Assembly (NCBI GenBank): GCA_000091205.1
Contig: AP006487.2
Strand: one strand, 5' to 3'
DNA from: Cyanidioschyzon merolae
Taxonomy: Eukaryota
Length of the DNA stretch: 64,000 bases
A program made the position numbers and the translations under genes. This document shows, piece after piece, positions 3,989 through 57,234 of this stretch. How positions within the stretch are numbered: the stretch's first letter is position 1; each line of letters starts with the position of its first letter. The notes beneath the pieces were generated by a model. That model did no database searches, was not told the DNA's origin, and saw only the letters and a list, made by a program, of their open reading frames with translations.

Positions 3989-6424
3989 ATGCCTCGCAAG
4001 CGTTCGCGTCTCGATAAGGCTTCTTCTGATATGGGTGCTGGCAAACCCAAGGTCTACACTGGCGCAGAGCGCGTGCCGGCGAAACGAGGTGCGGTAAGCG
4101 TTGCGCCGACTCGCCGGAATCAGGCCGGAGAGGCGCACCCCCGAGACGCACAAGGCACGAAGCGGAGCAAGCGTCTCATAACGTCAACACGAGCTTCTAA
4201 CCTTGAGGACGACATTGAGGATGACTTTGTGTGCTCCGTTTGTGGTTCTGGGCACGACGAGGACCTCCTTTTGCTTTGCGATGGCTGTAACGGGGCTCGA
4301 CACACGTACTGCTGCTCGCCCCCGTTACTCCAGGTCCCTGAGGGAGACTTTATCTGTCCGGATTGTAATTCGGATCAGCAGTGGAACGCGGCGCCCAGCG
4401 CACTGGCGCCTTGTGAGCGCTCAGACAAGCATGCACGAATGCGTTCAAACGCGTCAGAGACTAGGGCACCGGCAATCGCTGCAGCTGCTGCTGGACAAGG
4501 CTTTTCATATAACAAACAATTCACTGGCGACAGCGATGCTGGAGAGCGTGTTCCCCAGAGGCCCGCGGTTTCCTCCATGATGATCTCTGGAGACTCAAGG
4601 CGTTCGCCTAGTCCGCATATGAGACTGGCCAGTGCGGAGCTTTCGCAAGCTGAGCCTATGCCTGGAGCGCATTTGCGCGAAGCGGATGCCGCTGTGGAGG
4701 CCATTTCTCTGGGTACCGCCAGTGACAGCAGGCTGACACTTGCAGAGATCGGTGCACCGCCGGCGTCCTTCCCGTCTCCGCACAGGCGCGCACCTGCGGA
4801 TACGCTCCGCGAATGCGTCGAGAAGAGCTCTGATAGCGAGTCGGCAGCATCGCAACTCGTCGCAATACAAAGCGCACCCACAGAATCTGAAGGCAAGCTG
4901 CGTCACGATTCATTTGCGAGCGCCCAAGTCGTACGGCAGACGACCGTTGTGTCGGCGGAGGGTGCGAGCCCGTCGACAGGGGGCTGCGAGGGATTCCCTG
5001 GTCATGCGTTGCCCGCGCAGAGCGAATCCACGGGTCTGACCCAGACCCCAGTGCACGCTGATCTGCATTCCACTGCATCCTCGAATGCGTCTGAACTGGA
5101 GACCGGCGCAATCGAAGCCGAACACATCGCTCCGTGCGGTAGCGCTTTGGGAGCAACTGCACGAGCAGGGGGCCAGGTGCCTGCCGCGACTGGCCCTGCT
5201 GCCGAACTCGTCTTGCAAGCGCCATCAACGCTGTCGAAACGGCCATCTATGCAGATGCCGTTGGCGCATCCAGGGAGCATGGTGGCAGTCGGCGATGCCC
5301 CGGAGCACCAGACATATGAGCGACATGCGGTAGACCTCGACTCTGTGGCAACCGAAACGCTTTTGAAAGACACGGGAGCTTTGGTATGCGTGGAAAACTC
5401 GTCCATATCATCGAATAGCGCTGTCCAGCTTGACAGCTCAGTTGACGCGACGCAAGTTTCCTCCAAGCCGGATTCGGCGGCCATTTCTGTGGAGGGCGTG
5501 CGACTGCGCGATTCCCTTGGGCGAGAGTCGGACGGCGCTGCCGCGTCACTGGGCCAAGCATCAGACGCAGCATCTCAACCAGAAACTGCGTCTCGGCTAG
5601 TTCGCAGCGTGCCAAGTAGTGCGGCCGGTCGTCCGGCTCGCCGCATCATGCCCCGGGTTGGTGAAGCCTTTCAGGTCCCCGAAGCCGCAATACCTGCCGA
5701 CTTTCCAGATGGCGAGCAACGCGGATACGCAACCGACAGCGAGCGTATAGCGAGTCTCGAGGCGTTGCGAAAACAGATTCAGCGGCATATTGAAACGTAC
5801 CTGGAGAAACCTGGCTCGGTATACTGGTATGCGGGAAAGATACCCGAGGCGCAGCTGCGTACCTACCTAGAAAAATGCAGCGCATTTATTGAAAAGCGCT
5901 GGGGTCTACCGGCGACCGCTGAACAGGAATTTGTGCTCCACTGCATTCTACACGAGAACAACTATGATGTGGACGCTGCCTATGTCGTGGTCACTGAGAC
6001 CGAGCGTTTGGCTCCACAGGCGGTGGATCCCACTTGCTGGACCAGTGAGGATCGTTCTTTATTTGCGCGAGGGATTTTCGAGTACGGCAAGCAGTTTTCC
6101 CTCATCCAGCGTTATTTGCTCCCGCATCGTCGCGTACAGGATCTAGTGCGCTATTATTTCCGAAAATACAAGCAACTGGTGGAGCAGCAAATGAATAGTG
6201 CTCAGATGGAGTTTGGCTATCTCTATGACACTGGCGAGGAGCCGGTACCACATGCTCGGCCCTTTCCCAGCTGCGTCTTTGTTAACATGTTGCGAATGCA
6301 GGCGCGGACGGCAGGCGATGGATTTCCCTTTCCCGGATGGTTTCGCCAGCACCTGGTGGCGGTTCGCGAAATACGTCGCCTGCGCACCGTGGAGGCCCTA
6401 GGCCGCAGCTTTACTGCCCGCTGA
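3989..6424 (+). CDS. Chromatin-associated protein with N-terminal basic region, C4HC3 PHD finger, long A/S-rich low-complexity linker and C-terminal ELM2-like plus SANT/Myb-like domain
   Basis: 811-aa ORF. PHD signature: CSVCGSGHDEDLLLLCDGCNGARHTYCCSPPLLQVPEGDFICPDC. ELM2-like: RVGEAFQVPEAAIP. SANT-like: WTSEDRSLFARGIFEYGKQFSLIQRYLLPHRRVQDLVRYYF. Confidence 0.65.
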   Translation: MPRKRSRLDKASSDMGAGKPKVYTGAERVPAKRGAVSVAPTRRNQAGEAHPRDAQGTKRSKRLITSTRASNLEDDIEDDFVCSVCGSGHDEDLLLLCDGCNGARHTYCCSPPLLQVPEGDFICPDCNSDQQWNAAPSALAPCERSDKHARMRSNASETRAPAIAAAAAGQGFSYNKQFTGDSDAGERVPQRPAVSSMMISGDSRRSPSPHMRLASAELSQAEPMPGAHLREADAAVEAISLGTASDSRLTLAEIGAPPASFPSPHRRAPADTLRECVEKSSDSESAASQLVAIQSAPTESEGKLRHDSFASAQVVRQTTVVSAEGASPSTGGCEGFPGHALPAQSESTGLTQTPVHADLHSTASSNASELETGAIEAEHIAPCGSALGATARAGGQVPAATGPAAELVLQAPSTLSKRPSMQMPLAHPGSMVAVGDAPEHQTYERHAVDLDSVATETLLKDTGALVCVENSSISSNSAVQLDSSVDATQVSSKPDSAAISVEGVRLRDSLGRESDGAAASLGQASDAASQPETASRLVRSVPSSAAGRPARRIMPRVGEAFQVPEAAIPADFPDGEQRGYATDSERIASLEALRKQIQRHIETYLEKPGSVYWYAGKIPEAQLRTYLEKCSAFIEKRWGLPATAEQEFVLHCILHENNYDVDAAYVVVTETERLAPQAVDPTCWTSEDRSLFARGIFEYGKQFSLIQRYLLPHRRVQDLVRYYFRKYKQLVEQQMNSAQMEFGYLYDTGEEPVPHARPFPSCVFVNMLRMQARTAGDGFPFPGWFRQHLVAVREIRRLRTVEALGRSFTAR

Positions 6425-12457: not shown

Positions 12458-12750
12458 TGCGTATTCTTGCTTGGGTCGTGCTCAGTAGGCAAGAAAACAC
12501 GACGTTGTCCTCGTCCTTGTCGTCGTCACAACCGTACGCTGTATATCGCAGGAATTCGACACGAGTCCGCGATTACGCGTGTGGAGCGCACGGCGCCGTT
12601 GCGTCGTCGCAATCCATCACTGCGCTTCGTCGATCGACGCCTCGCGAGGAGAGCAGCGGCCTGGAGCGCGTCTCGTGACAAGCGTGACAGCGTGCGGTGC
12701 CTGCATGATCGCGCGCGCGCCTCCTGTCGCCTGATCTGATCGGGCACCTC

Positions 12751-12956
12751 GATGGTTCCATTGATGGATGTGGATGCGAGTTGCACCTCAACATGCGTGT
12801 CCGTATTTCTCCGTGCGTGCTTGCCGATGATTCCATTGATGTATGTGGATGCGAGTTGCACCTAAACATGCGTGTCCGTATTTCTCCGTGTGTGCTTGCC
12901 GATGATTCCATTGATGTATGTGGATGCGAGTTGCACCTAAACATGCGTGTCCGTAT
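12751..12956. repeat. 75-bp tandem repeat, about 2.8 copies, 290-500 bp upstream of the aldolase start
   Basis: Unit GATGATTCCATTGATGTATGTGGATGCGAGTTGCACCTAAACATGCGTGTCCGTATTTCTCCGTGTGTGCTTGCC at 12751, 12826 and 12901 (third copy truncated). Flanked on both sides by (N)GATC pentamer runs containing GATCTGATCG (12733-12745 and 12972-12988). Confidence 0.85.
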
Positions 12957-18837: not shown

Positions 18838-21800
18838 TGAGTTTGCGTCTACTCATGACGGTTTCTCTGTATGAGATGCTGTTGGTCCGGCGGCTTCCAT
18901 TGCTAGAGCAATGACAGCCTCGAAAACAAGCTGTAAAACGCCGGCGATACGAGGTTTCACTGATTGGCAGGTTGTTCGTGATCATCGCGCACCGGACGCG
19001 GGGATTGGTTGACGACGTTGAGGATACCTTAGTGTCTGTGCGGAGGCATTATTCTGTCAGATTGTGCAGCTATGTATTGTGAGAACGATCTGGTCTCGTG
19101 CGTGGCAACAGGGACTTGGTGAAACCAGAACCTCAGCGTGACAACTGAAACAAGTACGCTGGCACATGAACGGTACCATAGACTCCGCGATAGGTCAATG
19201 GGGCGCGCAACGTGATCCAGAGGGGCGTTTGTGGCGCGAACAAGTCGCAGCGCTGCTGGCAAACGCTGCAGGATCGTGTGCTCGCATGCTGACTTTGGAA
19301 GCTTCCTCGGCGATACCGGTAAAGAAAACATCGTATCGTTTATAGCGCTGTTGTCTTCGCCTTATATTCGTTTACGGACTTGCCCTGTGTATGCATTAGG
19401 AGCATCGGCACTGACGACCGAGTTCTTCTGGACATCGTCGGCGTTATACTCAGTCATATCCAACAACGGAACGCGGTTATCGTGCAATAGCTCACAAGAA
19501 TAATCATCGCTGGTGCATATAGATGTATATGGCGCTTCAGATTCCATAACTTGCCGAATCCTATCATATCAATGCGTTATTACTGGCGGGCATCCGATTC
19601 TATCTCATGCTCAATGATCTTATGCATCGGACGTCGTCAGCGTTTCAACACAAAACCCAGATTAAGTACTCGACCATTACTTTGATAGTGCGCTCAGCAG
19701 CAAGCCATTGGACGCTCCGAATCCAAGAGTCACTTCCGGATCGTGATCGAGGAACTCAAGCCTCGATACAGAACGTGCTTCGACGCATGATTGCTGGTGA
19801 AATTGCGCTATCGTACGCTTCTCAACTTCGAGTCGCTCGCTTTCTATCCAACTGTCCGCTTACCGCACAACACCTCGTGCATCCGTCTCTTTTCCGCGTT
19901 CTTACACTCGACGAGTTTCAGCATGTACACACACTCGTGATGCGTTCGTTTCGTCCTGACGGCACCTGTGGTGACTGGACAGCATCTGTCCCAGTACGCG
20001 TTGAGCGCACCCGTCGAATGCGCAGAAATGCAGTATTTGGGTGCCACAGTACGTCCAGAGCCATCGACTAGCACCAAACGATTCGAGGGGTCGCTGAATT
20101 CCCCTTCCAACCCACTGAGTAACTTAGTGAAGGTTGTTTTGTGGCATCCGTGCACCCGGAACCGTTGCTTACCTACCGGGATCTCACATTCTCCCGCGAA
20201 GGATCGTTCGCTTGAGTCATCTAGAAGTTGGTTTACGCTCTGAATGAAGCGTGCAACGCATCGGCATCTGCTCTGGACGGTGTCGAGAGCGTCGAGATGG
20301 ATCGCGAGGCCATTATTATGCCACGTGTTGGTATGTTCGCTGATGCACATGCTTTCGGACTCTTGATTATACCAAGCCCTGAAAATGTCAAACCGAATTC
20401 CATTTTCTCTCTCAACCATCAGTAATCAGGAGCAAGGTTTCATCGAAAATATCGGGAGGCATGAGGGCCGCTAACACCTTCCTATCTCGCATGCCCACTG
20501 AGAATCGCCTGGCGAGGTGCTACCCGGTCAGGGACGCTGGGCTAGCCTTCAGCACGTTACGCGGTTGGCGATATCTAATGATGTCCTGCATTTCACAATT
20601 TTGGAAGATTCCCCTCATTGATGTCTGGTCGTTGTGGGGCCTTTACAACAGCTTTTCCACGGAAATTCCCGATAAGAAAGTTTTTTTCATGCACTACGTC
20701 GTCCTCACGTAAAAAATATCATTTTCTTTACTTCCTGGTGGTTCATTCTTCCACTCCTTGTTCGCCTTGCCATCTACTTGATGGGTTGGCAAGAGTGTGA
20801 TCGCTGCACGCCAAATACGACGCTTTACCAGGGACCCAGACGCACCTGGGGCACTGTCAGACCGAAGCTTTCCTGCTTTCTGCATGTACCTACTATACTT
20901 CAAGAACGTTTTCGTCGCCGTGTCCGTCGCGAGCATGCCCACGAACAGGGATGTGCTCCTTTCCGTATCTCCTCGCGCCCGTCCGGTGAAGCAACTCATC
21001 AGTTCAGGGAAAGCGAAGATAGATGGTGATTTGTCGAAGAACGATGGCACGGATGCAAATTTCCCACATAAACATATTTCAGCGAAAAAATGGCGTTATG
21101 CAACAGTGAACTGCGCCGTTGACTGCGTGGAACAAGGGAGAATCGGCTGACACGAGGAGGACCTCGAACCCATTCTGAGCTGCGTCATCCCTGACCGCTT
21201 TTGATTGATGGAAACCAACGCGCGATAGAGGCAGCACAGAAGCCTGCGCGATGGAGAAGCCACGCACAGCTTCGACGAAGGATGAGGTGTCGGACGATGC
21301 CATCCGTGTTGCGACTTGCAAGCGACCACACCAGAGTATTTCTCGTGATGCTTTTGTTGTCGAAATGCTCGCTTGGTTCTTCTTCACGAACTGTACTTGG
21401 TCCTTTATTCTTTGAGTACCCATAGACAGGTGCACGGTTCTTCCCGAGTACAGTCTCATCGAAGGAGACAAAATCCCGTCGCCTATGCAAGAAGCGTTCC
21501 CCCTCTCTCGTACGAAATCGATCGAGTGCTGTTCAGCGCGCGACGGTCTCATATAGGAGCGCGCCGACCTCTCTGTCGATTTGTGTCATCAATGTCATTC
21601 GTATGAGAGATACAAAAGCTTGGCATCGTGTGGAGTGTTTCGTGCTTTTCCTCAGAGACAGTATGGAGTGGAATGAGCAGTCAAGGATATAGTCCTGAAG
21701 ATACAGCTTAACCGGTTCGGTATACATTGGACAAGGTTCAGATCAACCTCTGAGACAAGGCTGGTTTAATCTCGTGCGGAACTCCTTGAAACTGGCGTGT

Positions 21801-22050
21801 ACATGCAGGGCGGTTTCTCGCAAGCTACCAGCGGCAACATCAAGTCTTCCGAGGATTTTTCTTCATTCTACAGGATACATTTCTTCTGTCGAATGCCTCT
21901 CAGAATAACGAAAGCGGGCATGTGTGGGCGCACATATGCAGCGTTCACTGCCCTGAGTATAGCCAAGCGACTGCGACATCCCATCGAGCTGTCCAGTCAT
22001 GATCTGTGCGTATGGCATGCGTCGTGTCTGGTGCCCTCACGGAACTTCAC

Positions 22051-41567: not shown

Positions 41568-43130
41568 TCACTGCTGTTCGTGCAGTTCACGATCGAGTGT
41601 TTCCGATAAAGCCGTCCCGATGTCTGGTGTGTATTTCGCATCGTCCGGCGCGAGGAGCTCCTCGTCGCTAGCGCGCTCCTCTGCCAGCGACACGAAGAAT
41701 CGGATGGCTAACTGTTGTGCATACGCCGGCGTAGCGTCGTCCAGGGCGTGCGCACCCGGGGCCCCCAGATGGCTCTGGAACCATGCCTGGACGCCAGCGC
41801 TTAACTGCTCGACCCGCTCCGTGGGGTACAGACGCAGAACGGCAAGCCACTGGTCCGGAGAACCTGGCAGAACGGTTTCCGATTCTCCGAGGACAAGCCG
41901 GGCCGAGTCCCCAGCAATGCACAGCGGGATACAGCCAGCGCTCATGGCCACGGCGATACGTCCCTGCCAATGCGGACTCGCCGAAACCAAGCAGAAACGA
42001 GTGCTCGACGCCAGCGACCAGAGGTCCAGAGCGTCGCTGCTGGTGAAGAAGCGAACGTCAGTCTCGGCATACCAGGACGCCACGTAGAGTGATTCGGACG
42101 GCAGCAGCTGCGTCAACACGGAAACCGTATACGGCCGCGATTCCGTTGTCTTTTGTCTGGAGCTTGGCGCGTCGAATGCATTCGGAAAAGGCGGAACGAG
42201 CCAGCGCACTTCCAAGCTTGGCACGCTAGTGTCGAAGAGCATCTCAGTGGAGGACACGATAAGCGCAGTCTCGCCTGCGAGGATGACATGGCGACAGCGG
42301 CGACAACACGACTCTGAGCCACGGTTCGCCGCCAGTGCGCGACAAAGCGCTCGTGCAGCTTCGATGGGGCCGCGCGATGCAACGCTGGGCGAAGCGCTCG
42401 CCAGTAGCGTCACCAGGATATCAGCGGCGTCCGGGTCAACAGTGCGGTACGGATAGTGCAGCGCATACTGCTGCGCCGCATTCGCTGCCAACGCAGCGTA
42501 CGCTGGTACGTACTGGGATGCACTGCCGCCCCAGAGTTGACTATACAACCACCCAGGATACACGAAAATGCGTGGGGGCGTCAGATTCTGGGCCTTCGAC
42601 GTCCAGGCCCAGGACGTCGTTGACAATGTGGCAAGTGATTCGAGCGCACTGATGCGTCCCAGCTGAGCGTTCGGCGCTGACGCGGGTTCCGCGGTAGCCG
42701 CTTTCGCCCGGAACGGCGCCGAGGGGGTGTCCCAGAACGCCGCCGACGGGCTATCGCGGCTGGCGGCTAGCGCATCCAGCCAGTCCGCGAGGTTACCTCG
42801 ATCCGGAGCCATCAGTCGCAGCGTCGAATAGACTGCCAAGCATGCAATAATAAGGTGCACAGCCCAGCGTCGTAGGTGGTAGAGACTTGCGTTGGCGGAC
42901 CAGCGCCGCAGCAGCGACGCGTACGGCGTGACGCTACCTGGAAAAGGTGTCCGCAACATCGGCTCTTGCGAGGCTGCTACGTCGCAGCTGCGAAGAGCGA
43001 CGGTCGGCCTAGGTCCTTTCAGCGCACGCGCACCGTCTATAAGCGTTGCGCTTTGCCCGAGGAGCGTTCCCGGGCTGGCCGAGTGTAGCGCGCGCGTCCG
43101 GCGGAGGGCCAGGGCTTCGTGCCGGCGCAC
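41568..43130 (-). CDS. Type-II membrane glycosyltransferase, exostosin (GT47)-like
   Basis: N-terminal signal-anchor WAVHLIIACLAVYSTLRLM. C-terminal RFCLVSASPHWQGRIAVAMSAGCIPLCIAGDSARLVLGESETVLPG resembles the exostosin C-terminal GT47 motif. Family-level call only. Confidence 0.5.
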   Translation of the reverse strand: MRRHEALALRRTRALHSASPGTLLGQSATLIDGARALKGPRPTVALRSCDVAASQEPMLRTPFPGSVTPYASLLRRWSANASLYHLRRWAVHLIIACLAVYSTLRLMAPDRGNLADWLDALAASRDSPSAAFWDTPSAPFRAKAATAEPASAPNAQLGRISALESLATLSTTSWAWTSKAQNLTPPRIFVYPGWLYSQLWGGSASQYVPAYAALAANAAQQYALHYPYRTVDPDAADILVTLLASASPSVASRGPIEAARALCRALAANRGSESCCRRCRHVILAGETALIVSSTEMLFDTSVPSLEVRWLVPPFPNAFDAPSSRQKTTESRPYTVSVLTQLLPSESLYVASWYAETDVRFFTSSDALDLWSLASSTRFCLVSASPHWQGRIAVAMSAGCIPLCIAGDSARLVLGESETVLPGSPDQWLAVLRLYPTERVEQLSAGVQAWFQSHLGAPGAHALDDATPAYAQQLAIRFFVSLAEERASDEELLAPDDAKYTPDIGTALSETLDRELHEQQ

Positions 43131-43237
43131 GTCGCCGCTGTCTTTCTTCTCCAGCGGTGGCGCTCGACGCTGCTGCGTTCCAGGTACACCCGCGGCCGGC
43201 GACCAGGATCCAAACTGGTGGTCCGCTTGCGCAACCT

Positions 43238-44689
43238 ATGGATGCGGATCTGCTCGAAAAAGCCCGAGCACTAGCGGATCCGGCCTACGTTACTGTCGCC
43301 GAAGCCGCCCGCCGAAGTCGCACGGCGCTATTTCGTCAACTCCTTACCCAGCGAAGACTTTTGCCTCAGGGACTCGACGAGCACACCGTTCGTCTATTGG
43401 TCGACGAGCTCGCCGGCCTGGACGCAAACCAGTTTATAGACCAAGCCAACGTCGGCGAGCGCGAAGGCCGTATTTACAGCGAACTCGTGCGGGCGCGCCA
43501 TTTCGGAATGGCGCACGGCATGGGCCGGGCCGGCGACCTGGCTGCCTCGCAGCCCAAGGCCTGCGGTGCATCCATCCTCGTGCGTTTATGCGCGGCGCTA
43601 TTGCTGGATGCGCTCCATGTTGCCGGTTTCAGGAGCTGCCGTCGGGTCGCGCTGCTGCCGATCGCCACCGGCATGGCGATGACGCTGTGCCTGCTGGCGC
43701 TTCGCTGGCAGCGACCCGCCGCAGATCGCGTCCTCTGGATCCGCATCGACCAGAAAGCATGTCTGAAATGCATCAGAGCCGCTGGCTACCAGATTGATGT
43801 TCTGGAAAACAAACTCGATGGCGACCAGGTCGTCACCGATATGGAGGCGTTGGAGAAGCGTCTGGCAGCGAGCGACCCCAGCCGCTACGCTGCCGTCATC
43901 AGCACCACATCGTGTTTTGCGCCGCGTGCCCCTGACCGTGTTGTTGCTATCGCTCAGCTTTGTGCACGTTACGGCATACCGCACCTCATTAACCATGCCT
44001 ATGGCGTGCAGAGCCGCCGCTGCAACGGGCTCGTGTGCGCAGCGTGTCGCCTAGGTCGGGTCGATGCCGTCATTTTCTCGTTCGACAAGAACTTTATGGT
44101 GCCCGTCGGCGGCGCCGGCGTTGCTGGCACCTCCCCCACGTTCATCGAGGCAGTGGAGTCGTTATATCCGGGTCGCGCCTCCGTGGCACCGGTAGTGGAT
44201 CTGTTCATTACACTGCTCCAACTCGGCCGCGACGGCTTCTCGGGACTGCTGCGCGAACGCGAGCGTCGTTTCCAGCGCTTCCAGGCGCAGCTGGCGCCAG
44301 TACTCGCCAAGCACGGCGAACGACTATTGCACACGCCCGATAACCCAATCTCATTCGCAATCAGCCTGGAACACACCATGCTCGAGGGCGGCATCGAGCC
44401 AACGGCGATCGGGAGCATGCTGTACGCGAGGCGCTGTTCAGGGCCGCGCGCCGTGCTCGGCACCGAGCGGCGTCTCGTGCAGGGGGTGCTTCTAGCCGGG
44501 TACGGTGCGCATATCGCGGATTATCCGGTGCCGTACCTCAACCTGGCAGCAGCCATTGGGATCCGGGATATCGACATCGAACGATTCTGTCGCCGCCTGG
44601 ATGAGGTGCTGGGGCAGGTGCGCGGCACTCGCCACGCCTCTGCAGCTAGCGCGGCGCTTGGGCCCCGAGCCGATCCAGGTCCGCCATGA
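43238..44689 (+). CDS. SEPSECS: O-phosphoseryl-tRNA(Sec) selenium transferase (SepSecS; selenocysteine synthase)
   Basis: ANVGEREGRIYSELVRARHFGMAHGMGRAGDLAASQPKACGASIL...IRIDQKACLKCIRAAGYQ...ISTTSCFAPRAPDRV...INHAYGVQSRRC...FSFDKNFMVPVGGAGVAG...SLYPGRASVAPVVDLFITLLQLG is collinear with human SEPSECS, including the PLP-lysine region. The start was set at MDADLLEKARALADPAYV; the longer ORF from 43046 would overlap the upstream gene. Confidence 0.9.
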   Translation: MDADLLEKARALADPAYVTVAEAARRSRTALFRQLLTQRRLLPQGLDEHTVRLLVDELAGLDANQFIDQANVGEREGRIYSELVRARHFGMAHGMGRAGDLAASQPKACGASILVRLCAALLLDALHVAGFRSCRRVALLPIATGMAMTLCLLALRWQRPAADRVLWIRIDQKACLKCIRAAGYQIDVLENKLDGDQVVTDMEALEKRLAASDPSRYAAVISTTSCFAPRAPDRVVAIAQLCARYGIPHLINHAYGVQSRRCNGLVCAACRLGRVDAVIFSFDKNFMVPVGGAGVAGTSPTFIEAVESLYPGRASVAPVVDLFITLLQLGRDGFSGLLRERERRFQRFQAQLAPVLAKHGERLLHTPDNPISFAISLEHTMLEGGIEPTAIGSMLYARRCSGPRAVLGTERRLVQGVLLAGYGAHIADYPVPYLNLAAAIGIRDIDIERFCRRLDEVLGQVRGTRHASAASAALGPRADPGPP

Positions 44690-45761
44690 GGCGCGGCAGG
44701 CGCACCAGTCCGCGGATTCGTGCACCGACGCGACCGTCCCTGCGAATGACGAACGTGAGATCATCGCTCGGTTTCACATTCGATGCACGCGCACACTCTT
44801 CCCGGATCCAGGCAAGCCATTCCTGAGGATTCGCTGGGGTTGCGATCCAGAATGCATTCGCTCGTCTGCGGGCGGCATCCAGGGCAACGAGCCAAGCATC
44901 GAGCACACCTGAAGCAGACCGCGTTTCCGCGCTGGACGGCACTGTAGGCGTTTGTCGGGCCGCGTCCCAGAGGACTGGCACCCAGACAACGCTCCGCTGA
45001 ATGAGTGCATCCGAATGCGGCTCGGCCTGAGCGAGCCACTCGCGCGCTTTCTCCAGACTCGTGACAGTGATGATGACTCGATACTGCCCTCGCAGGGAAG
45101 CGAGGGGAAAGCGCCAGCGAGGTCCCGGCTCCGACTCTAGCTGTAGCGCAGCGAGGCGCGCTCCCTGTTGCATGCGCTCGAGGCGTCGCTTGGCAGCCAC
45201 ATCGTCCCAGCGGTAGAGTGCTGCACAGAGCACACCAGAGGTCACGTCGATACCGAGGTTGCGCGCAGCCTGCCACCAGCTCTCGGTGGCGGTTGCACTG
45301 CCCGTGAGGGCCACCAGGCTACTCAGCGCGATAACGCTGGCGATGGTTGCACTCGCAACGCCGCCGGCATAGAGAAACTGGCGCGCTTTGCGGAACGGTG
45401 CCTCGGCCTCCTCGCGTAGCTGCCGTCGCTGTGCGGCACTGAGCGCAGCACTTGCTGGTGGTTCCCGGATAGTGCGCGCCTCCCGGAGCTGCGGTTTCGG
45501 ATAGCGGCTCTCGGGCTCCGTTCCCTGGTGGCTGCTCACGCTCGCACAGGCAACTGGCACACGCAAGTGCTTCTTGTGTGTAGGCGAGGAGCGTGCCGAT
45601 GGCATAACTGCCGCGGTGCGCGTAGCGCATGCCGCACCATGCACCCACGCGGAGCGCGAGTACCTGCACTGCCGTGTGCACACCGCAGGTACAAAACCGA
45701 ACCACAGCGACTCCACGGTAAAAGCAAGTTGTCTCTGATGACGTGCCGGTCTCGAAACCAT
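44646..45761 (-). CDS. Hypothetical protein with one predicted transmembrane helix; its 3' end overlaps SepSecS by 44 bp (convergent)
   Basis: 371-aa ORF; FLYAGGVASATIASVIALSSLVALTG hydrophobic segment; no confident family. Confidence 0.35.
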   Translation of the reverse strand: MVSRPARHQRQLAFTVESLWFGFVPAVCTRQCRYSRSAWVHGAACATRTAAVMPSARSSPTHKKHLRVPVACASVSSHQGTEPESRYPKPQLREARTIREPPASAALSAAQRRQLREEAEAPFRKARQFLYAGGVASATIASVIALSSLVALTGSATATESWWQAARNLGIDVTSGVLCAALYRWDDVAAKRRLERMQQGARLAALQLESEPGPRWRFPLASLRGQYRVIITVTSLEKAREWLAQAEPHSDALIQRSVVWVPVLWDAARQTPTVPSSAETRSASGVLDAWLVALDAARRRANAFWIATPANPQEWLAWIREECARASNVKPSDDLTFVIRRDGRVGARIRGLVRLPRLMADLDRLGAQAPR

Positions 45762-45983
45762 AAACTTGCAGCGGAGTTTGCTTTAAGTCAGTTCCCCGAA
45801 AGGCGTCGTGCGCTTAACCTGTTGCACAGGCGCACGTGCCAGCACAAAGTGGCAGCGTTATGGATCGGCGCACACCTGCACATAGCAGCGTTCACGTTTG
45901 TACCCGTGGCTGTGCAGCCCAGTGTTGTTGCAGAGTCTGCGTCCAGGAGAGTGCAAGGAAGCGGCATGGAACCGCACACCGAA

Positions 45984-47340
45984 TGAGGTCTCGTGATCGA
46001 GTCATCTACGAGTTTGACTCCGTTCCCGCTAAACTCTGTCTAATAGAAACATACATCGACTGAGGTCTCGTGATCGATTCATCTACAAGTTTGACTCCGT
46101 TCCCGCTAGACTCTGTCTAATAGAAACGTACATCGACTGAGGTCTCGTGATCGATTCATCCACGAGTTTGACTCCGTTCCCGCTAGACTCTGTCTAATAG
46201 AAACATACACCGACTGAGGTCTCGTGATCGATTCATCTACGAGTTTGACTCCGTTCCCGCTAGACTCTGTCTAATAGAAACATACACCGACTGAGGTCTC
46301 GTGATCGATTCATCCACGAGTTTGACTCCGTTCCCGCTAGACTCTGTTTAATAGAAACAAACATCGACTGAGGTCTCGTGATCGATTCATCCACGAGTTT
46401 GACTCCGTTCCCGCTAAACTCTGTCTAATAGAAACATACACCGACTGAGGTCTCGTGATCGATTCATCCACGAGTTTGACTCCGTTCCCGCTAGACTCTG
46501 TTTAATAGAAACATACATCGACTGAGGTCTCGTGATCGATTCATCCACGAGTTTGACTCCGTTCCCGCTAGACTCTGTCTAATAGAAACATACATCGACT
46601 GAGGTCTCGTGATCGATTCATCCACGAGTTTGACTCCGTTCCCGCTAGACTCTGTTTGATAGAAACATACATCGACTGAGGTCTCGTGATCGATTCATCC
46701 ACGAGTTTGACTCCGTTCCCGCTAGACTCTGTCTAATAGAAACATACACCGACTGAGGTCTCGTGATCGATTCATCCACGAGTTTGACTCCGTTCCCGCT
46801 AGACTCTGTTTAATAGAAACAAACATCGACTGAGGTCTCGTGATCGATTCATCCACGAGTTTGACTCCGTTCCCGCTAGACTCTGTCTAATAGAAACATA
46901 CACCGACTGAGGTCTCGTGATCGATTCATCCACGAGTTTGACTCCGTTCCCGCTAGACTCTGTTTAATAGAAACATACATCGACTGAGGTCTCGTGATCG
47001 ATTCATCCACGAGTTTGACTCCGTTCCCGCTAGACTCTGTCTAATAGAAACATACATCGACTGAGGTCTCGTGATCGATTCATCCACGAGTTTGACTCCG
47101 TTCCCGCTAGACTCTGTTTGATAGAAACATACATCGACTGAGGTCTCGTGATCGATTCATCCACGAGTTTGACTCCGTTCCCGCTAGACTCTGTCTAATA
47201 GAAACATACATCGACTGAGGTCTCGTGATCGATTCATCCACGAGTTTGACTCCGTTCCCGCTAGACTCTGTCTAATAGAAACATACACCGACTGAAGTCT
47301 CGTGATCGATTCATCTACGAGTTTGACTCCGGTCCCGCTA
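45984..47340. repeat. 77-bp tandem satellite, about 17.6 copies, with 6-unit (462-bp) higher-order repeat structure
   Basis: Unit CTGAGGTCTCGTGATCGATTCATCCACGAGTTTGACTCCGTTCCCGCTAGACTCTGTCTAATAGAAACATACACCGA. Unit starts at 45984, 46060, 46137, 46214 and so on, period 77. Variant order A-B-A-C-D-E at 46214-46675 recurs exactly at 46676-47137. No ORF is open across the array. Confidence 0.9.
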
Positions 47341-47985
47341 GACTCCATGTTTCGTACGAGGCGCTCGCGAGGATCACCCGCGTGATACTGGGACGCGCTC
47401 GAATGCGTTGCACTCACAGAGCCTCAGTTCTCACTGGTCCCCGTGGGGCATCGTATTTGGGACGGCTTCTGCCGATGCATCATGAATCTAATCGATATAT
47501 GTGTATCTTCAGTCAGCGTGGTGATTGCATCTGTATCGCTCTGCGAGGTGTCTGGGCTCTCCGCGAATGCGTATGGTGCCCGCATCGAAAGTTTCGACAG
47601 ACGGGGTGCCAGTGGTAAAGTGAGGCTGTAACCAGGCTCTTGGAAAGACGCGTTTATCGAACAGCGCTCTGTTCATGATGTAGAACGTGTAAACACGAAG
47701 CTGCAGTCACGACATGTGCTCTGTGAAAAACAACGAGGGCCCAGGTATGCTCTGGGCCATCGCTTGGAGACAGGCTCCCTCATCCTCCATCTGTTTTGCA
47801 CAGGAGAGAGGCCGCATAGTCAAGAGATCAGCGGCCTGACATGTGTACGATGCAAAGGTAGCAGTCAGAGCCTTCTGATCCACCGGGTGTTTCCAGGACG
47901 CCCGGCGCTGCACCTACGGAGCTCGCGCTTGCGCTGGACTCTAGGGTTCAACACCCGTAGCGCTTGTCTGTTTGCGGTCGGTACT

Positions 47986-48600
47986 ATGCTGCGTCTGGCC
48001 GAATGGAAAGACGCACAAACCACAGACGATGCAGACAAAAGTGACGAAGTTCGCAGCACCTCGCAACTGGCGAGCACCCCGCCGCAACCGAGTTCCCAGG
48101 TAGCTGGAGTGCCAACACCCGCGTCGCTACGCTGGCTGAGTCAACAGCGTCTCCAGCAGGACTTGACGGAGCTCGGCGTGACTGCACCGGAACTCGAGCT
48201 GCAGTTTCCGGACCTTTCGGATATCTCCCGGTTTATCGTAACGCTGTCTCCAGCAGAGGGCTGGTACAAGGGTCTGTGCTTTCGCTTTGCGTTTACGGTG
48301 CTGGAGACGTATCCTTTCGAGCCGCCACTGGTTCGCTGCCTCGACGCTGTCTGGCACCCTAACCTGGACGAACACGGTGCGGTCTGTCTGAGTATTTTAC
48401 GTGAGGACTGGCGACCCGTGTATACGCTCGTATCGCTAGTTCAAGGGCTTTTGCACTTGTTACTGGAGCCGAACCCGAACGATGCTCTAAACGCTGCAGC
48501 CGCCGAGATGCTGGTGCAAGACCCCGCCGCCTTTCAGGCTCGTGTTCACCAGCAGGTTCGGGAGCGCCAATACCATTTCGAGAACGCTGCACCTCCATGA
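47986..48600 (+). CDS. UBC12: NEDD8-conjugating enzyme E2 (UBC12/UBE2M)
   Basis: SPAEGWYKGLCFRFAFTVLETYPFEPPLVRCLDAVWHPNLDEHGAVCLSILREDWRPVYTLVSLVQGLLHLLLEPNPNDALNAAAAEML closely matches the UBC12 catalytic core (HPN...CLxILREDWxPV...LEPNP). The in-frame upstream ATG at 47716 would add 90 non-conserved residues; I prefer 47986. Confidence 0.85.
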   Translation: MLRLAEWKDAQTTDDADKSDEVRSTSQLASTPPQPSSQVAGVPTPASLRWLSQQRLQQDLTELGVTAPELELQFPDLSDISRFIVTLSPAEGWYKGLCFRFAFTVLETYPFEPPLVRCLDAVWHPNLDEHGAVCLSILREDWRPVYTLVSLVQGLLHLLLEPNPNDALNAAAAEMLVQDPAAFQARVHQQVRERQYHFENAAPP

Positions 48601-48808
48601 GACATGCAGACCGGAAACGGCTTCCTGCGTCGCTTATGCATATCTGCAGTGTCGCTGGGGCGCAGCTCGCCGGTGTCTGAAGTCTGCGCACTTTAGACGC
48701 TGCCGCCGAAAGCATTTCCAGTCTGGAAGGGTGGCTCGTTCACAAGCTATGGCCAGCGTACACCAATGCAGGATCCGCTCACGATACCGTGCGAGTGTCA
48801 GCGCGCAA

Positions 48809-50395
48809 CTAGCCGTACTGTGTGCTTCCCAGCAGGACGTCGCTTCGCGCTGCAGATGTGGATGCTCCGAGGTCAACGAATTGTGTGTCCAGAAAAGTTT
48901 CGAGCGGCAGCTGCTGTTCCGTTGCCGCTAAAAGCCAATCTATTCGATATGCTCGCGCATATCGACACCGAAACCACGCCGTCACCGGAGGTGTCAGCGC
49001 TTCCTTCATGCCGATCAGGCTGCCGATTTCGAGACGACCATGCGTTTCATTCAGATTCTCTTGTCCTGGAGCGGATCGCATTTCTACGAGGAACCACGGC
49101 AACGCTGGCCCATTCATCTGGGCATCCGTCGCACCAGCGGTATCGCCAGGAGCATCTGATGTATCCCACGGTTCGAGCGCATTTCGCTCAAAGCGAGGAC
49201 ATCCGCGACCTTTCCACACCATCCATCGATGTTCTTCGTCTTGGCAAATATGTCGAAGTACATGGAGAGAACGAGGACTCGTTAGGTGTTCCAGTCGCTG
49301 CCATATCATTTTCCGCAATGAAACCCATGAAGGATGGTCAACGCGCAGGCTAAACATCCAAATCCGTAACAAAAGCAAGAGCTGGAAACAGTCATCCGTG
49401 CGAAGTTGCTCCAGAAGGCTGGCGTCGAGAGCGCCCACCGCACAGGCCTCGACCCAGTTGTAGGTTTGGATGAGCGATCGCTGAACACCAGCGAAATGAA
49501 TCGATCGATGCCAACTCGATATGTCGGAGCTCTTGTCTTCAACGCCATCGCCAGGTGCAGGGAGAAAATCAGTCAGAACGCGGCTGGCGTCAGTTGCGTC
49601 CACAGGAACGTTACCTCCGAGCATCCGCAACAGAGCTGCAAGTGCAGTCGGACTCGGTGCCATGCTCGGCTGCTGCTCCGGGCGAGTAGATTCCGTGCTC
49701 ATTCCCTGCGTAGAAGCATGCGTTCGCTTCTGCTGATCATCAGAGTGATTCGTTGTGTCTGCGTGGGACTGCTCGGGACCAGACATCGTTATCGTCGTCG
49801 TTTTGGTAATATCCGCCTTTGTATCTGTTTCATTGGTCGAGCGCGATGATCTGGATATAAATGCTGACGCGTGGAGCGCCGCTCCCTCTTTTTCAACGTT
49901 CGGGATCTGCCGAGGCCAGTGCGAACCCGGTGCCAGAGAAGCATACGCATTCCGCAAGTTCACGTGCGAGCGATCGTCAACTGGTAGCGCTGCACTCAAC
50001 AGTCGCATAGCTCGAGCACGCAACTGCCAGTCCCGCATTCCAGAAGTGCGAGCCATGAGTCCACGCCAGAGCGCTCGAATGAGCGTCAGACCCTCCCGCG
50101 GTGTCAACGGTTCCCCGCGGCGTGCTGCGACGTACCCCTCTAGCGCTTCGAGGACCGACTCAACCTGGGACGCTCGACTGATCGTGACAGGGACCGCTTC
50201 CAACCATTCTTCAATAGTTTTCCAGTCGCCTTGGGCAAGTTGATCACGCAAAAAATCGACCGGGGAGCTCGTAGCGCCATCAGAGGCCGCAGCCGGCGCT
50301 GCCACGAAAACGCTTGCCACTTCGGTCGTCTCCGACCCGGAGGCACGAGACGCTGCGGTTGCTTTTCCTGTGCGTTGCCGTTTGGTCCCGGGCAT
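48809..50395 (-). CDS. Hypothetical protein (528 aa), helical-repeat-like, no confident family
   Basis: Long ORF with moderate codon-position GC bias and no low-complexity dominance; no motif recognised. Confidence 0.4.
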   Translation of the reverse strand: MPGTKRQRTGKATAASRASGSETTEVASVFVAAPAAASDGATSSPVDFLRDQLAQGDWKTIEEWLEAVPVTISRASQVESVLEALEGYVAARRGEPLTPREGLTLIRALWRGLMARTSGMRDWQLRARAMRLLSAALPVDDRSHVNLRNAYASLAPGSHWPRQIPNVEKEGAALHASAFISRSSRSTNETDTKADITKTTTITMSGPEQSHADTTNHSDDQQKRTHASTQGMSTESTRPEQQPSMAPSPTALAALLRMLGGNVPVDATDASRVLTDFLPAPGDGVEDKSSDISSWHRSIHFAGVQRSLIQTYNWVEACAVGALDASLLEQLRTDDCFQLLLLLRIWMFSLRVDHPSWVSLRKMIWQRLEHLTSPRSLHVLRHICQDEEHRWMVWKGRGCPRFERNALEPWDTSDAPGDTAGATDAQMNGPALPWFLVEMRSAPGQENLNETHGRLEIGSLIGMKEALTPPVTAWFRCRYARAYRIDWLLAATEQQLPLETFLDTQFVDLGASTSAARSDVLLGSTQYG

Positions 50396-52506: not shown

Positions 52507-53592
<1,086 letters not shown>

Positions 53593-55055
53593 AAGCCGGG
53601 TTTTGGCTCAACGGGGTACGAGCGGTGCGCTCTGGAAGAATGATGCGCAGGCGTTGTGCGCGTTCGGCGGCAATCGCTGAAAGTGAAATGTGCAGATAAT
53701 GCAAAGTGTCCAGTCGTCCGATTAGGCTCCATGGATGAATGAGGAAGCGGAAGGCGTCCCTGCCATGGTTTTCCCCAGCGTCTACCAGCTGAGTCTATTT
53801 TGGGCGGCACTACTCGAACGCGTCGGGGGAAAAGACGACCCCAGACTCCGGAAAGGCGCCACAGTGTACACCATTTTGGCTATGTTGTGGCGAATCTCGT
53901 GTATCTGTTCGTGTGGATCCACTTCGGGCTGCAGGCAAAAATGGGTACGTCGCACTAACGCGCTATCCTTCATCCGTGGGTCTGAAACACCACTGCGCGG
54001 GAGATCTTTTCGCCCCGTGGAGCATGCCTCCGATAACTTAAGCTTGTCAAAGACGGAGAGAACCATAGCTTACCTATGTGCGCGTAGGAACGCGTATCTG
54101 CCATCAGCACTAGTCGGGAGAACCTGCATGGACTATGAGTAGCCTTGTGCACGGAGCAAGTTCCCTGAAAAACTACCCACCCATGCCCCCGTGTCAGATT
54201 CAAATGGAACACGAAACCGCTTGCTCTGTCGCAGCCTTTCTATTTTGGCAAAAATTGGTTTAGATATACAGCCCCGGCATTCGAAGTTTATCAGTATGGG
54301 CTAGCGGATCTACGGGTGGTATTCGGATTCTCGGTCACCTTTACGATGTGGCTCTTTCGACGCTTTGCCGCTGGAATTCGTATATTACCGGAACCGAAAT
54401 GATTCGCAATGGCATCGAATCATGATTCGAAAAATAATCGATGTCGTTCCCCAATTCCTATGTACAAGTCTCTGCACTTGTCTTTTGCTATGTGAAGCGT
54501 GCTCTTGTCACGCATTATGCCAAGTTTTCGAGCTTTCTGTTCCAAGGCGACTCGAGGGCACAGCAGTTTGCGCACCTGAATTCACGACGGAAAGAGAAAA
54601 CGACGTCGTCTCTCGACGGCTCTTTCGCAAGGCTCCTCGCGAACATTCACCCCACTGCTGACGTGAAATTATCGATTCCATGCGAACAACATATGCGTCT
54701 CTCTTGTGGCCGTCGACTAGACGAGATTCCACAACAGCTGGAGACCGCTCACGGGATATGCTTGCAGAGGCGCCCATCTCTTTTTTTTTTGCGTGGAGAA
54801 AGACCCCGGACTCCGACTTGAGACATTCCAGAGATCAGTACCAGTGGGGCGTGCGTCGCTGCTTTGCTTGAAGCAAGTGCAGACGAAGCGAAAGCTCTCG
54901 TCCTGGTCTCGAGCCTGCATTCGCTTTTTCATAATTGTTTCATCATGGTCAACATCGGATTCCACAACTCGTCTACAGAATGGAACAGCGTACGCTTGTT
55001 TGTACCGCGGACAGAGTACTCGCCAATGGTATCGCTCAGAAAAAGTTCATGATCG

Positions 55056-56451
55056 TTGTGCATTGCACTGGGCAGGAAACCGAGAAGAGCAGCGAGGCGA
55101 AACCTCTGCTCTCTGACCTGGATGTATCGGACGGTAAAGCAAGCATTTTCGCGCCACAATGCAGCACTCGTAGGGGAAAGCGTAGCGGACATGCGGGAAC
55201 ACCCGACCACAACCTCCGGTCACTGCGACGAACGGAGTACCAGGACTATTTCCAGAAGTGATGAACGCAGATGGCGACGCATCGTTCACAGATGCTTTGG
55301 GGTCATGAAATGCGTCAATCACAGCCGCAAGTGTCGAAATCGGTACTCGAACGCTGCCACCAAAATGCTTGGATCGCTGACAACGGACCTGGAAGCGCAG
55401 CAGAGAACCTACTAATCAATGCCGGATATGAAAGATGGGAAAAGCAAGCAGGCATAGAAAACGTTCGCAAAGGCCAATAAGGATGGTATGGAGAAGACAA
55501 CAGCATTTGAATATGTATGCCCGAGTTATAGGGCCCGTTCTGTTTTCTAGTCTTCCAACTCAATTGTGTTTCCCCTCAGATGCGGTGAATAGCAGGAGGT
55601 CGAAATCACGATGGCATGTGTTGTATAGCTTGCAGACGAGGTGACTGTAGGATATATTCGTTACTGAATAGTTCAGGGAGAACTGCATTCCTGCTTCGGG
55701 TGAATCATAACACTGTGCTCAGATATCTGAGGAACACTGAAAGAAACAGGTACATGCGTTCCGCGCCAAAACTGGCTCAGTGAAAAACTGCCCGCAATCA
55801 ATCGTATGAAACGGCTCTTTAATCGCCTTACGGAGAACAAAAGCGACGACAGTAGCTGCCAAGAGCGTCTACGTATCTGAATACCTCGTTGGTGCGGTCC
55901 TGAAAATACTTGGGTACAGTCGCATATAAAGTCCAATGTCATTCACGGCCATCTTCAACCGAAATGTCCATTACAGCATTCCAGGGAAGTCGCCATCCGT
56001 ATGAAGCACAGGGATGTGGGTTTGTTTTTCCAGTCGATGAAACTTCCTTCGAACAGAACGGTCAGAGCATGTATAGGTACCCGTGGAGACGGAGCCCGTT
56101 GTATGTGCGATCGAAATCGAAGCGAACTGAGACATCATCACCTGTTCTCGCTACAGTAGATACATTTGGCGGCCTTCGTTTCTCTCCTAGAGAAGGCTCA
56201 TGCAACAGCACCATGCATTTTGTCAAATCACTGAGGACTTTTCTCAGACGCCTGGCGACATCTTTCTATTGGACAACGAGGTATTTCATCTTTCCTCCTC
56301 CGTTCGAGATTTTGCCGATTCTATAGGGATAGGCTTGCTTCTCGTTCCGCCGTACGCTCCGTGATTCAAACCAATCGAACGGGTGTTTCCTATCGTGAAA
56401 CGTAATGATCGCTTCACAGAGCGACTCACTGAAGCGTTCAGCACACGGTGA
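55056..56451 (+). mobile_element. Degenerate Tc1-like (Tc1/mariner superfamily, DD34E) transposase relic, split over at least two frames, with an in-frame TGA within the catalytic triad region
   Basis: N-terminal piece SGHCDERSTRTISRSDERRWRRIVHR (cf. Tc1 SGRPRKLSPRDARHLIRL). DDE core in ORF 55910..56326: FVFPVDETSFEQNGQSMYRYPWRR...ATVDTFGGLRF. After a frameshift: GDIFLLDNEVFHLSSSVRDFADSIGIGLLLVPPYAP*FKPIERVFPIVKR (cf. Tc1 FVFQQDNDPKHTS...LLDWPSQSPDLNPIEHLWEELER). The D-to-E spacing is 34. Confidence 0.65.
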
Positions 56452-56586
56452 TTCCAGGGCAAATGCCGTCTTGCTTCCGCAAATCCTTCTCGCTCCGAGG
56501 GGGGTCCTCTGGCGAGAGCATAAAGGAGTAAGCTCATTTTAAAGAAATTAAGGGATGAGCCGGGATGTAAACTCCTGAAGGCCGAA

Positions 56587-56850
56587 ATGGAGGAACGTCA
56601 GCGAAGCACTTCGGATATAGAAAAGCCCGGAGCGCTGTTCGAGCAGCAAATGGCACAGAGGGCACGAGTTCGAGGACTCCGTGCACTGGTGCGTTCAACG
56701 AGCTCCAACAAACGCATGGAGTTCGTGAACAGGGACGAAAACGCTGCTATCAATATCAGACGATTTGCGGTGCCAAAAACGGGACCCGATGAGCAGACCC
56801 GATCCAACGTTGTGGGGTCAGCGTCTCAAACTCGAATTGCATATGGATAA
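56587..56850 (+). pseudogene. Short ORF carrying a TnpB/Fanzor-like RuvC-III signature (NRDENAAINI), in the same frame as and immediately downstream of the Tc1-like relic; candidate decayed OMEGA/Fanzor-type nuclease fragment
   Basis: ...LVRSTSSNKRMEFVNRDENAAINIRRFAVPKTG. The (D/N)RDxNAAxNI motif is the conserved C-terminal RuvC-III block of TnpB/Fanzor/Cas12. The upstream zinc-finger cysteines are not intact (only PGCKLL remains). Confidence 0.35.
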
Positions 56851-56868
56851 ACAGAAACAGGTAGCAGC

Positions 56869-56888
56869 CGGCAGGCAGGCAGGCAGGC
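56869..56888. repeat. (GGCA)5 microsatellite
   Basis: ggcaggcaggcaggcaggcc. Confidence 0.9.
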
Positions 56889-57234
56889 CGTGCAACACTG
56901 GAAGGCGGCAGCACGTCGGTATACATTGAGCGTAACGACGCGAAGCGTTTTCGCTCTGATAACCACATAGCCCAGTCGTCGTATGCTTTTTCTGAGAACC
57001 GTTTCTCGTGATAGTGAAACGCATCGCAGTGGTACTGGTTGCGAATACTTCGCCAGGAAGGGTTTAAAAATCTAGTGACAAGCTGGGGCGTCTCTCCACA
57101 CTCTTGAACGGACACCGGGGACGCCTCCAGTTGCAGCGCACAGTCGTATGAGCTGCTGCCGCGTCGCACTGTACTCTTAAACGGACACGTGGGACACCCT
57201 AAGTTGCAGATCGCGTACCGCTTGTGGCTCTTCG

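Follow-up and report, generated by a model that had tools for sequence, protein, structure and literature searches.

Minisatellite or VNTR loci have units of 10-100 bp and arrays of 0.1-20 kb. Eukaryotes have many minisatellites with internal block duplications, and a further array of this kind is of small significance alone. [quoted passage not shown] The array lies between two divergently transcribed genes and has the structural properties of a minisatellite: its period of 77 bp falls within the ~10-100 bp range, its units run head to tail, it occupies a single locus in the window and in metagenome contigs, and it is non-coding and holds no RNA gene. Our literature search returned no paper that describes it.

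Tandem Repeats Finder (TRF) delimits the array to positions 45976-47345, with 17.8 copies of the 77-bp unit, 96% matches, 0% indels and a score of 2537. The initial annotation had recognized the 77-bp array but placed it at 45984-47340 with ~17.6 copies; the repeat itself stands, and its edges and copy number are those given by TRF. The consensus 77-mer, allowing up to three mismatches, matches 16 times in the window, each time within the array, compared with no match in 100 dinucleotide-preserving shuffles. The units follow one another head to tail in an exact 77-bp register and vary at few positions (4, 32, 57, 65, 67 and 77), with mostly transitions that are combined in differing orders. 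A unit-by-unit table shows that the interior units are homogenized and that the edge units are the most diverged: the left edge unit (45976-46052) carries 5 differences from the consensus, more than any other complete unit, and the diverged right edge unit (47285-47345) is truncated to 61 bp. By inspection, each unit also contains a short inverted repeat at unit positions 15-37, consisting of CTCGTG, 11 nt and CACGAG (for example at 46529-46551). By our own estimate, a 6-bp inverted repeat is expected by chance in about one-third of all 77-mers.

The spacer between the flanking genes measures 2,224 bp, and the array takes up 1,370 bp of it (62%), in agreement with the earlier statement that it fills most of a 2.2-kb spacer. 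The remainder is unique sequence, 214 bp on the left (45762-45975; GC 57.5%) and 640 bp on the right, upstream of UBC12 (47346-47985; GC 55.6%). In neither part is homology to the unit better than in shuffled sequence, and a search of the flanks for a sequence from which the unit might have arisen likewise gave local alignments that score no better than shuffles. The array has a GC content of 46.8%, compared to 56-57% for the unique flanks, 56% for the window and ~50% for the spacer as a whole.

On the left, the minus-strand gene at 44646-45761 encodes a 371-aa DUF3493/LPA1-Rep27-like protein (Pfam PF11998, E = 2e-19) equal to BAM79372.1. On the right, the plus-strand gene at 47986-48600 encodes UBC12, a 204-aa Rub1/NEDD8-conjugating E2 (Pfam PF00179, UQ_con, E = 2.1e-32) equal to BAM79373.1, which is annotated as 'Rub1-conjugating enzyme E2'. 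Because both open reading frames are identical to annotated proteins, the gene starts given by the initial annotation, 45761 on the minus strand and 47986 for UBC12, are correct. Further along the window lie CYME_CME163C (48809-50395, minus strand; exact match to BAM79374.1) and a dimethyladenosine transferase gene (52519-53592; exact match to BAM79375.1). On the other side, the SepSecS open reading frame (43046-44689, plus strand) and the DUF3493 gene (44646-45761, minus strand) overlap tail to tail by 44 bp at their 3' ends, and the two gene calls overlap likewise in relatives.

Within the array, units of the types A-B-A-C-D-E occur in this order at 46214-46675 and again at 46676-47137. The order had been noted from the sequence and holds, but the accompanying claim of base-for-base identity does not: two positions out of 462 distinguish the blocks, 46238 (T/C) and 46417 (A/G), which gives an identity of 99.6%. 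In the TRF register, the first block corresponds to units 4-9 (46207-46668) and the second to units 10-15 (46669-47130), with 3 differences in 462 bp. Five pairs of units are identical (5/11, 7/13, 8/14, 9/15 and 10/16). Identity is 97.8% at a lag of 462 bp, 96.5% at 77 bp, 97.5% at two units and 96.7% at three units. A recent duplication of the six-unit block, as proposed earlier, is borne out by the 99.6% identity of the two copies versus 96.5% for adjacent units. Judging from the 0.4-0.65% divergence between blocks, compared to 0.7-1.1% between strains (see below), this duplication would have occurred after the strains diverged or at about the same time. From unit 5 through unit 15, alternate units carry the T65 variant. 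With the six-unit duplication allowed for, this two-unit (154-bp) alternation rests on three units and is suggestive.

We examined the array for coding and RNA-coding capacity. All six frames are interrupted by stop codons, as the initial annotation had stated, and no open reading frame wholly inside the array exceeds 44 aa, the longest having a GTG start; a coding repeat can therefore be set aside. Neither this 44-aa frame nor a 77-aa frame at the array edge is recorded as a called gene. ARAGORN found no tRNA or permuted tRNA in any register, on either strand or anywhere in the window, a result that matters because permuted tRNA genes are known in C. merolae (PMC3728597). Rfam gave no match to the array at E values up to 10, and none in the window at the gathering threshold. 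Folding of one and two units on both strands gave z-scores of +0.27, -0.50, +1.44 and -0.01 relative to shuffles. The array is non-coding. A scan for promoters and terminators used bacterial models and is uninformative for a eukaryotic host.

Is the unit part of a dispersed or high-copy satellite, an outcome that the initial annotation had named as one that would make the promoter location incidental? It is found at one locus only, both in the 64-kb window and in JGI metagenome contigs. Elsewhere in the window there are no copies of the unit, only chance matches of 9-12 nt. For the wider scans we used as query a 20-mer core that 16 of the 17 complete units share without change. In the JGI metagenome contigs this core occurs in three stretches, all at the DUF3493-UBC12 locus, so that locus specificity is shown as far as tested. 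Exact scans with the same core returned 0 matches in both a viral and a prokaryotic collection, and we found no terminal inverted repeats of a mobile element around the array.

The three JGI stretches come from strains 99.1-99.3% identical to 10D, one of them on a 103-kb contig (99.2-99.3%), and the unique flanks differ by 0.7-1.1% between 10D and the wild strains. The array is thus present in wild populations. In these strains the variant states C4, T32, A57, T65, G67, A77 and G48 recur in differing orders, and the first unit differs from that of 10D (C4 only, or C4 together with A34). The truncated right edge unit ends the array identically in all wild-strain contigs. Because the order of units and the edge units differ among wild strains, polymorphism in array length, predicted by the initial annotation, appears plausible; the copy number of 17.8 is that of the reference assembly alone.

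To place the array among related algae, we used UBC12 in a homology search, which returned orthologues from Cyanidiococcus yangmingshanensis, at 64% identity, and from a second cyanidialean lineage, at 58% identity. Cyanidiococcus retains the gene order Rsm22, hypothetical gene, SepSecS, DUF3493 (minus strand) and UBC12 (plus strand), with a 448-bp spacer in which TRF detects no array and BLAST no match to the unit. In the second lineage (contigs L016 and L017), the spacer measures 501 bp and has no significant homology to the unit. By this comparison, the short, array-free orthologous spacers show the array to be specific to the C. merolae lineage, apparently added there and absent from relatives, rather than a conserved part of the promoter. 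Synteny between C. merolae and Cyanidiococcus stops directly downstream of UBC12 (window 47986-50395 versus contig L015 10001-12620), where C. merolae carries CME163C (minus strand) and Cyanidiococcus an RRM-domain gene (plus strand).

Overall, these data favor a reading of the array as a young, non-coding, single-locus minisatellite that is neutral or nearly neutral, to which we assign a probability of roughly 0.7. Within the short spacer that holds the bidirectional promoter of the DUF3493/LPA1-like gene and UBC12, a 77-bp segment would have been amplified head to tail, by replication slippage or unequal sister-chromatid exchange, and the same processes would later have reshuffled the array. 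In 10D, the latest visible step would be an unequal exchange that duplicated the six-unit, 462-bp block. Through these events the spacer would have grown from ~450-500 bp, the length seen in related genera, to 2.2 kb. This mutational mechanism is likely, and neutrality is probable given that we see neither conservation nor a signal in the array. As the array most likely lacks a function of its own, its effect on both promoters would be passive. It could influence the promoter of the minus-strand gene, because it begins 214 bp from that gene's start codon.

The alternative with the most in its favor, though an unlikely one, is that the array is an amplified cis-regulatory module in which factor-binding sites such as CTCGTG/CACGAG drive the bidirectional promoter; in that case, expression of the DUF3493 gene, of UBC12 or of both would depend on the number of units. 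Its location fits: the two start codons that flank this spacer of divergent promoters are 214 bp and 641 bp away from the array. Moreover, 7-mers of the CCACGAG and CACGAGAC type are common to the orthologous spacers of Cyanidiococcus and the L017 lineage. The unit's CCACGAG and CACGAGA/ACGAGAC, which derive from the arms of the inverted repeat, occur in both (three shared 7-mers versus 0.28 expected; three or more in 2 of 500 shuffles), and the only CCACGAGA in 20.7 kb of Cyanidiococcus DNA falls in the orthologous spacer. CACGAG is absent from the non-array part of the C. merolae spacer. Unit positions 48-54 (TTCCCGC) presumably resemble an E2F core.

The shared 7-mers carry less than their number suggests. 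As overlapping products of one 6-bp inverted repeat, the three represent a single coincidence; at least one shared 7-mer would arise by chance with a probability of ~0.25. CCACGAGA is not enriched, with 3 seen versus 2.9 expected in the window and 1 seen versus 1.09 expected in the Cyanidiococcus contig L015. Position 32 of the unit, where the CACGAG arm has its first C, is itself variable, and the sister genus does without the array. A 7-mer is the only sequence that the unit shares with the orthologous promoters, and we regard this sharing as a weak lead that may point to a regulatory element.

It is also quite improbable, to a slightly greater degree, that errors of assembly account for part of the copy number and of the higher-order block, a real array having been misjoined or miscounted in a Sanger assembly of near-identical units. 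Two 462-bp blocks at 99.6% identity are close to the resolution limit of Sanger reads. Besides the three JGI stretches, protein look-ups in ENA, JGI and Logan yielded ~25 more contigs, which either end at or within the array or span it. The spanning contigs, all from short-read assemblies, hold 1.8, 2.8, 3.8, 4.8 or 6.8 units, so that independent assemblies contain at most 6.8 units; across the array they are shorter than the reference sequence by a whole number of 77-bp units (11, 14, 15 or 16). The first C. merolae release is also known to have contained >20 kb of misassembled or incorrect sequence (PMC1955436).

Three lines of evidence run against such an artefact. First, contig breaks together with shortfalls in multiples of 77 bp are the pattern expected from the collapse of a long array. 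One JGI sample series, apparently from a single population, has identical left-edge units yet yields 1.8, 3.8, 4.8 and 6.8 units, and the differing unit counts are therefore likely to reflect short-read collapse rather than alleles. Second, the differences between the two 10D blocks use the variant states T32 and A57, which are also found in other units and in wild strains, and are not random errors; such shared states speak for two genuine copies of the block rather than a duplicate created in assembly. Third, the C. merolae genome was finished from BAC clones (PMC1955436). Separately, contig L030 (reverse complement, 2558-2649) leaves the array after ~2.3 units and continues into 70 bp that have no matches in the window or at the other loci compared; this 70-bp sequence may stem from a chimeric assembly or represent an insertion allele.

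Tandem repeats of similar period occur elsewhere in the Cyanidiales DNA that we examined. The window contains a second intergenic repeat with a 75-bp unit, 2.8 copies and 96% identity (12750-12956, with a partial third copy to 12974). Contig L016 has a 74-bp repeat of 3.4 copies between Rsm22 and the next gene (4967-5221) and, in the orthologous DUF3493-UBC12 spacer, a 76-bp period present twice (L016 9795-9944, equal to L017 2314-2463). The Cyanidiococcus spacer carries a 94-bp period, also present twice, which overlaps the start of UBC12 (L015 9899-10040); this duplication places a copy of the first UBC12 codons upstream of the annotated start. The DUF3493-UBC12 spacer therefore shows a local tandem duplication in each of the three lineages, which hints at a local propensity for duplication or at selection. 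In ~95 kb of non-redundant DNA, four of five strong long-period repeats have periods of 74, 75, 76 and 77 bp, a small sample in which two of the five lie in orthologous spacers. The 77-bp unit is not detectably homologous to the 74-, 75- or 76-bp units: none of 12 tests is significant after correction, and in the best of them, the 77-bp unit against the reverse strand of the 76-bp unit, 14 of 1000 shuffles scored as well.

We consider it a long shot that tandem duplication recurs at the DUF3493-UBC12 promoter, having arisen independently in each of the three lineages, and that long-period repeats of the Cyanidiales favor a ~75-bp unit. Such a preference could stem from chromatin-templated duplication, with a unit matching one nucleosomal gyre or half a nucleosome repeat, or from selected promoter modules. 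If the recurrence of 74-77-bp periods were genome-wide, it would be the more interesting finding, as it would indicate a length-selective duplication mechanism.

A related proposal, which we judge very unlikely, is that the array phases chromatin, with the 77-bp unit or a 154-bp sub-period positioning nucleosomes or insulating the divergent promoters from one another. A length of 154 bp is near the nucleosome repeat lengths of compact genomes. The proposal would draw on the higher identity at a lag of two units (97.5%) than at one (96.5%) or three (96.7%), on the alternation of T65, and on the recurrence of unrelated repeats with periods of 74-77 bp in the Cyanidiales DNA examined. After correction for the six-unit duplication, however, the alternation involves three units and would arise by chance with a probability that we estimate at ~0.1, and in relatives the two genes are separated by 450-500 bp that contain no array.

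There is only a slim chance that the spacer is the CENH3-binding region and thus the centromere of chromosome 5. By a published account, each C. merolae chromosome has a single centromeric region of 2-3 kb with a mean GC content of 48.4%, compared to 55% genome-wide (10.1101/096016, citing Kanesaki et al. 2015). The 2.2-kb spacer with ~50% GC, and the array with 46.8%, resemble such a region. The same account, however, reports the centromeres without repeats and with 'no other apparent pattern' (10.1101/096016), and a satellite of 18 copies would have been remarked in published descriptions. Low GC is also undistinctive here: 2.5-kb windows over the array have 51.2-51.6% GC, compared to 49.5% at 54000-56499 and 50.4% at 19500-21999, and we put the prior at about one in 25 low-GC spacers on the chromosome (own estimate). 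The 77-mer is found at no other locus in the window or the metagenome contigs, so that instead of a satellite family shared with other centromeres, or long arrays, we find one locus of 1.4 kb. The orthologous Cyanidiococcus spacer is just 448 bp long.

We can all but dismiss the idea that the units are tandem small-RNA genes (C/D snoRNA, tRNA-like or permuted tRNA), for which the tRNA-sized unit and, by inspection of the plus strand, CUGA and GUGAUCGA with a loose resemblance to D and C boxes might speak, as ARAGORN and Rfam (E up to 10) are empty, folding is no better than chance, the C-box-like element is non-canonical and CUGA is absent from the minus strand.

Elsewhere in the window, positions 53600-56900 form a stretch of ~3.2 kb without a long open reading frame, which includes the lowest GC content of the window (49.5% at 54000-56499). 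Its open reading frames have no Pfam match and are absent from the protein collection searched. One of them (56587-56850) contains NRDENAAINIRR, which we take to resemble the RuvC-like motif of TnpB/Fanzor transposon proteins. This stretch may be a decayed transposon or an interspersed element of the kind described for the C. merolae genome.

The 77-bp array is a candidate marker for strain typing in C. merolae populations, and a site at which short-read assemblies of the locus are known to break. Because C. merolae supports targeted homologous recombination, the effect of a promoter-embedded array on two divergent genes can be tested easily.

Three known systems offer a comparison. Like the centromeric higher-order repeats of primates (alpha satellite), the C. 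merolae array combines diverged monomers into a multi-unit block whose copies are far more identical to one another than adjacent monomers are; unlike them, it has two block copies in 1.4 kb rather than hundreds to thousands, and sits at one locus between two genes. The promoter tandem repeats of yeast, the human INS VNTR and the enhancers of rDNA spacers resemble it in that the array lies in a promoter near a start codon, where a change in the number of units might, in principle, affect promoter spacing or how many binding sites are present. The closest match is with the minisatellite or VNTR loci of humans and yeasts. The C. merolae unit differs from these in having no G-rich or Chi-like core, and its host, a haploid alga, has a genome very poor in repeats, with 0.7% transposable elements (PMC1955436). 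It shares with them a 77-bp unit repeated head to tail over 1.4 kb at a single locus, variant units that are shuffled as in variant-repeat maps, diverged edges, and a block duplication of the type produced by unequal exchange.
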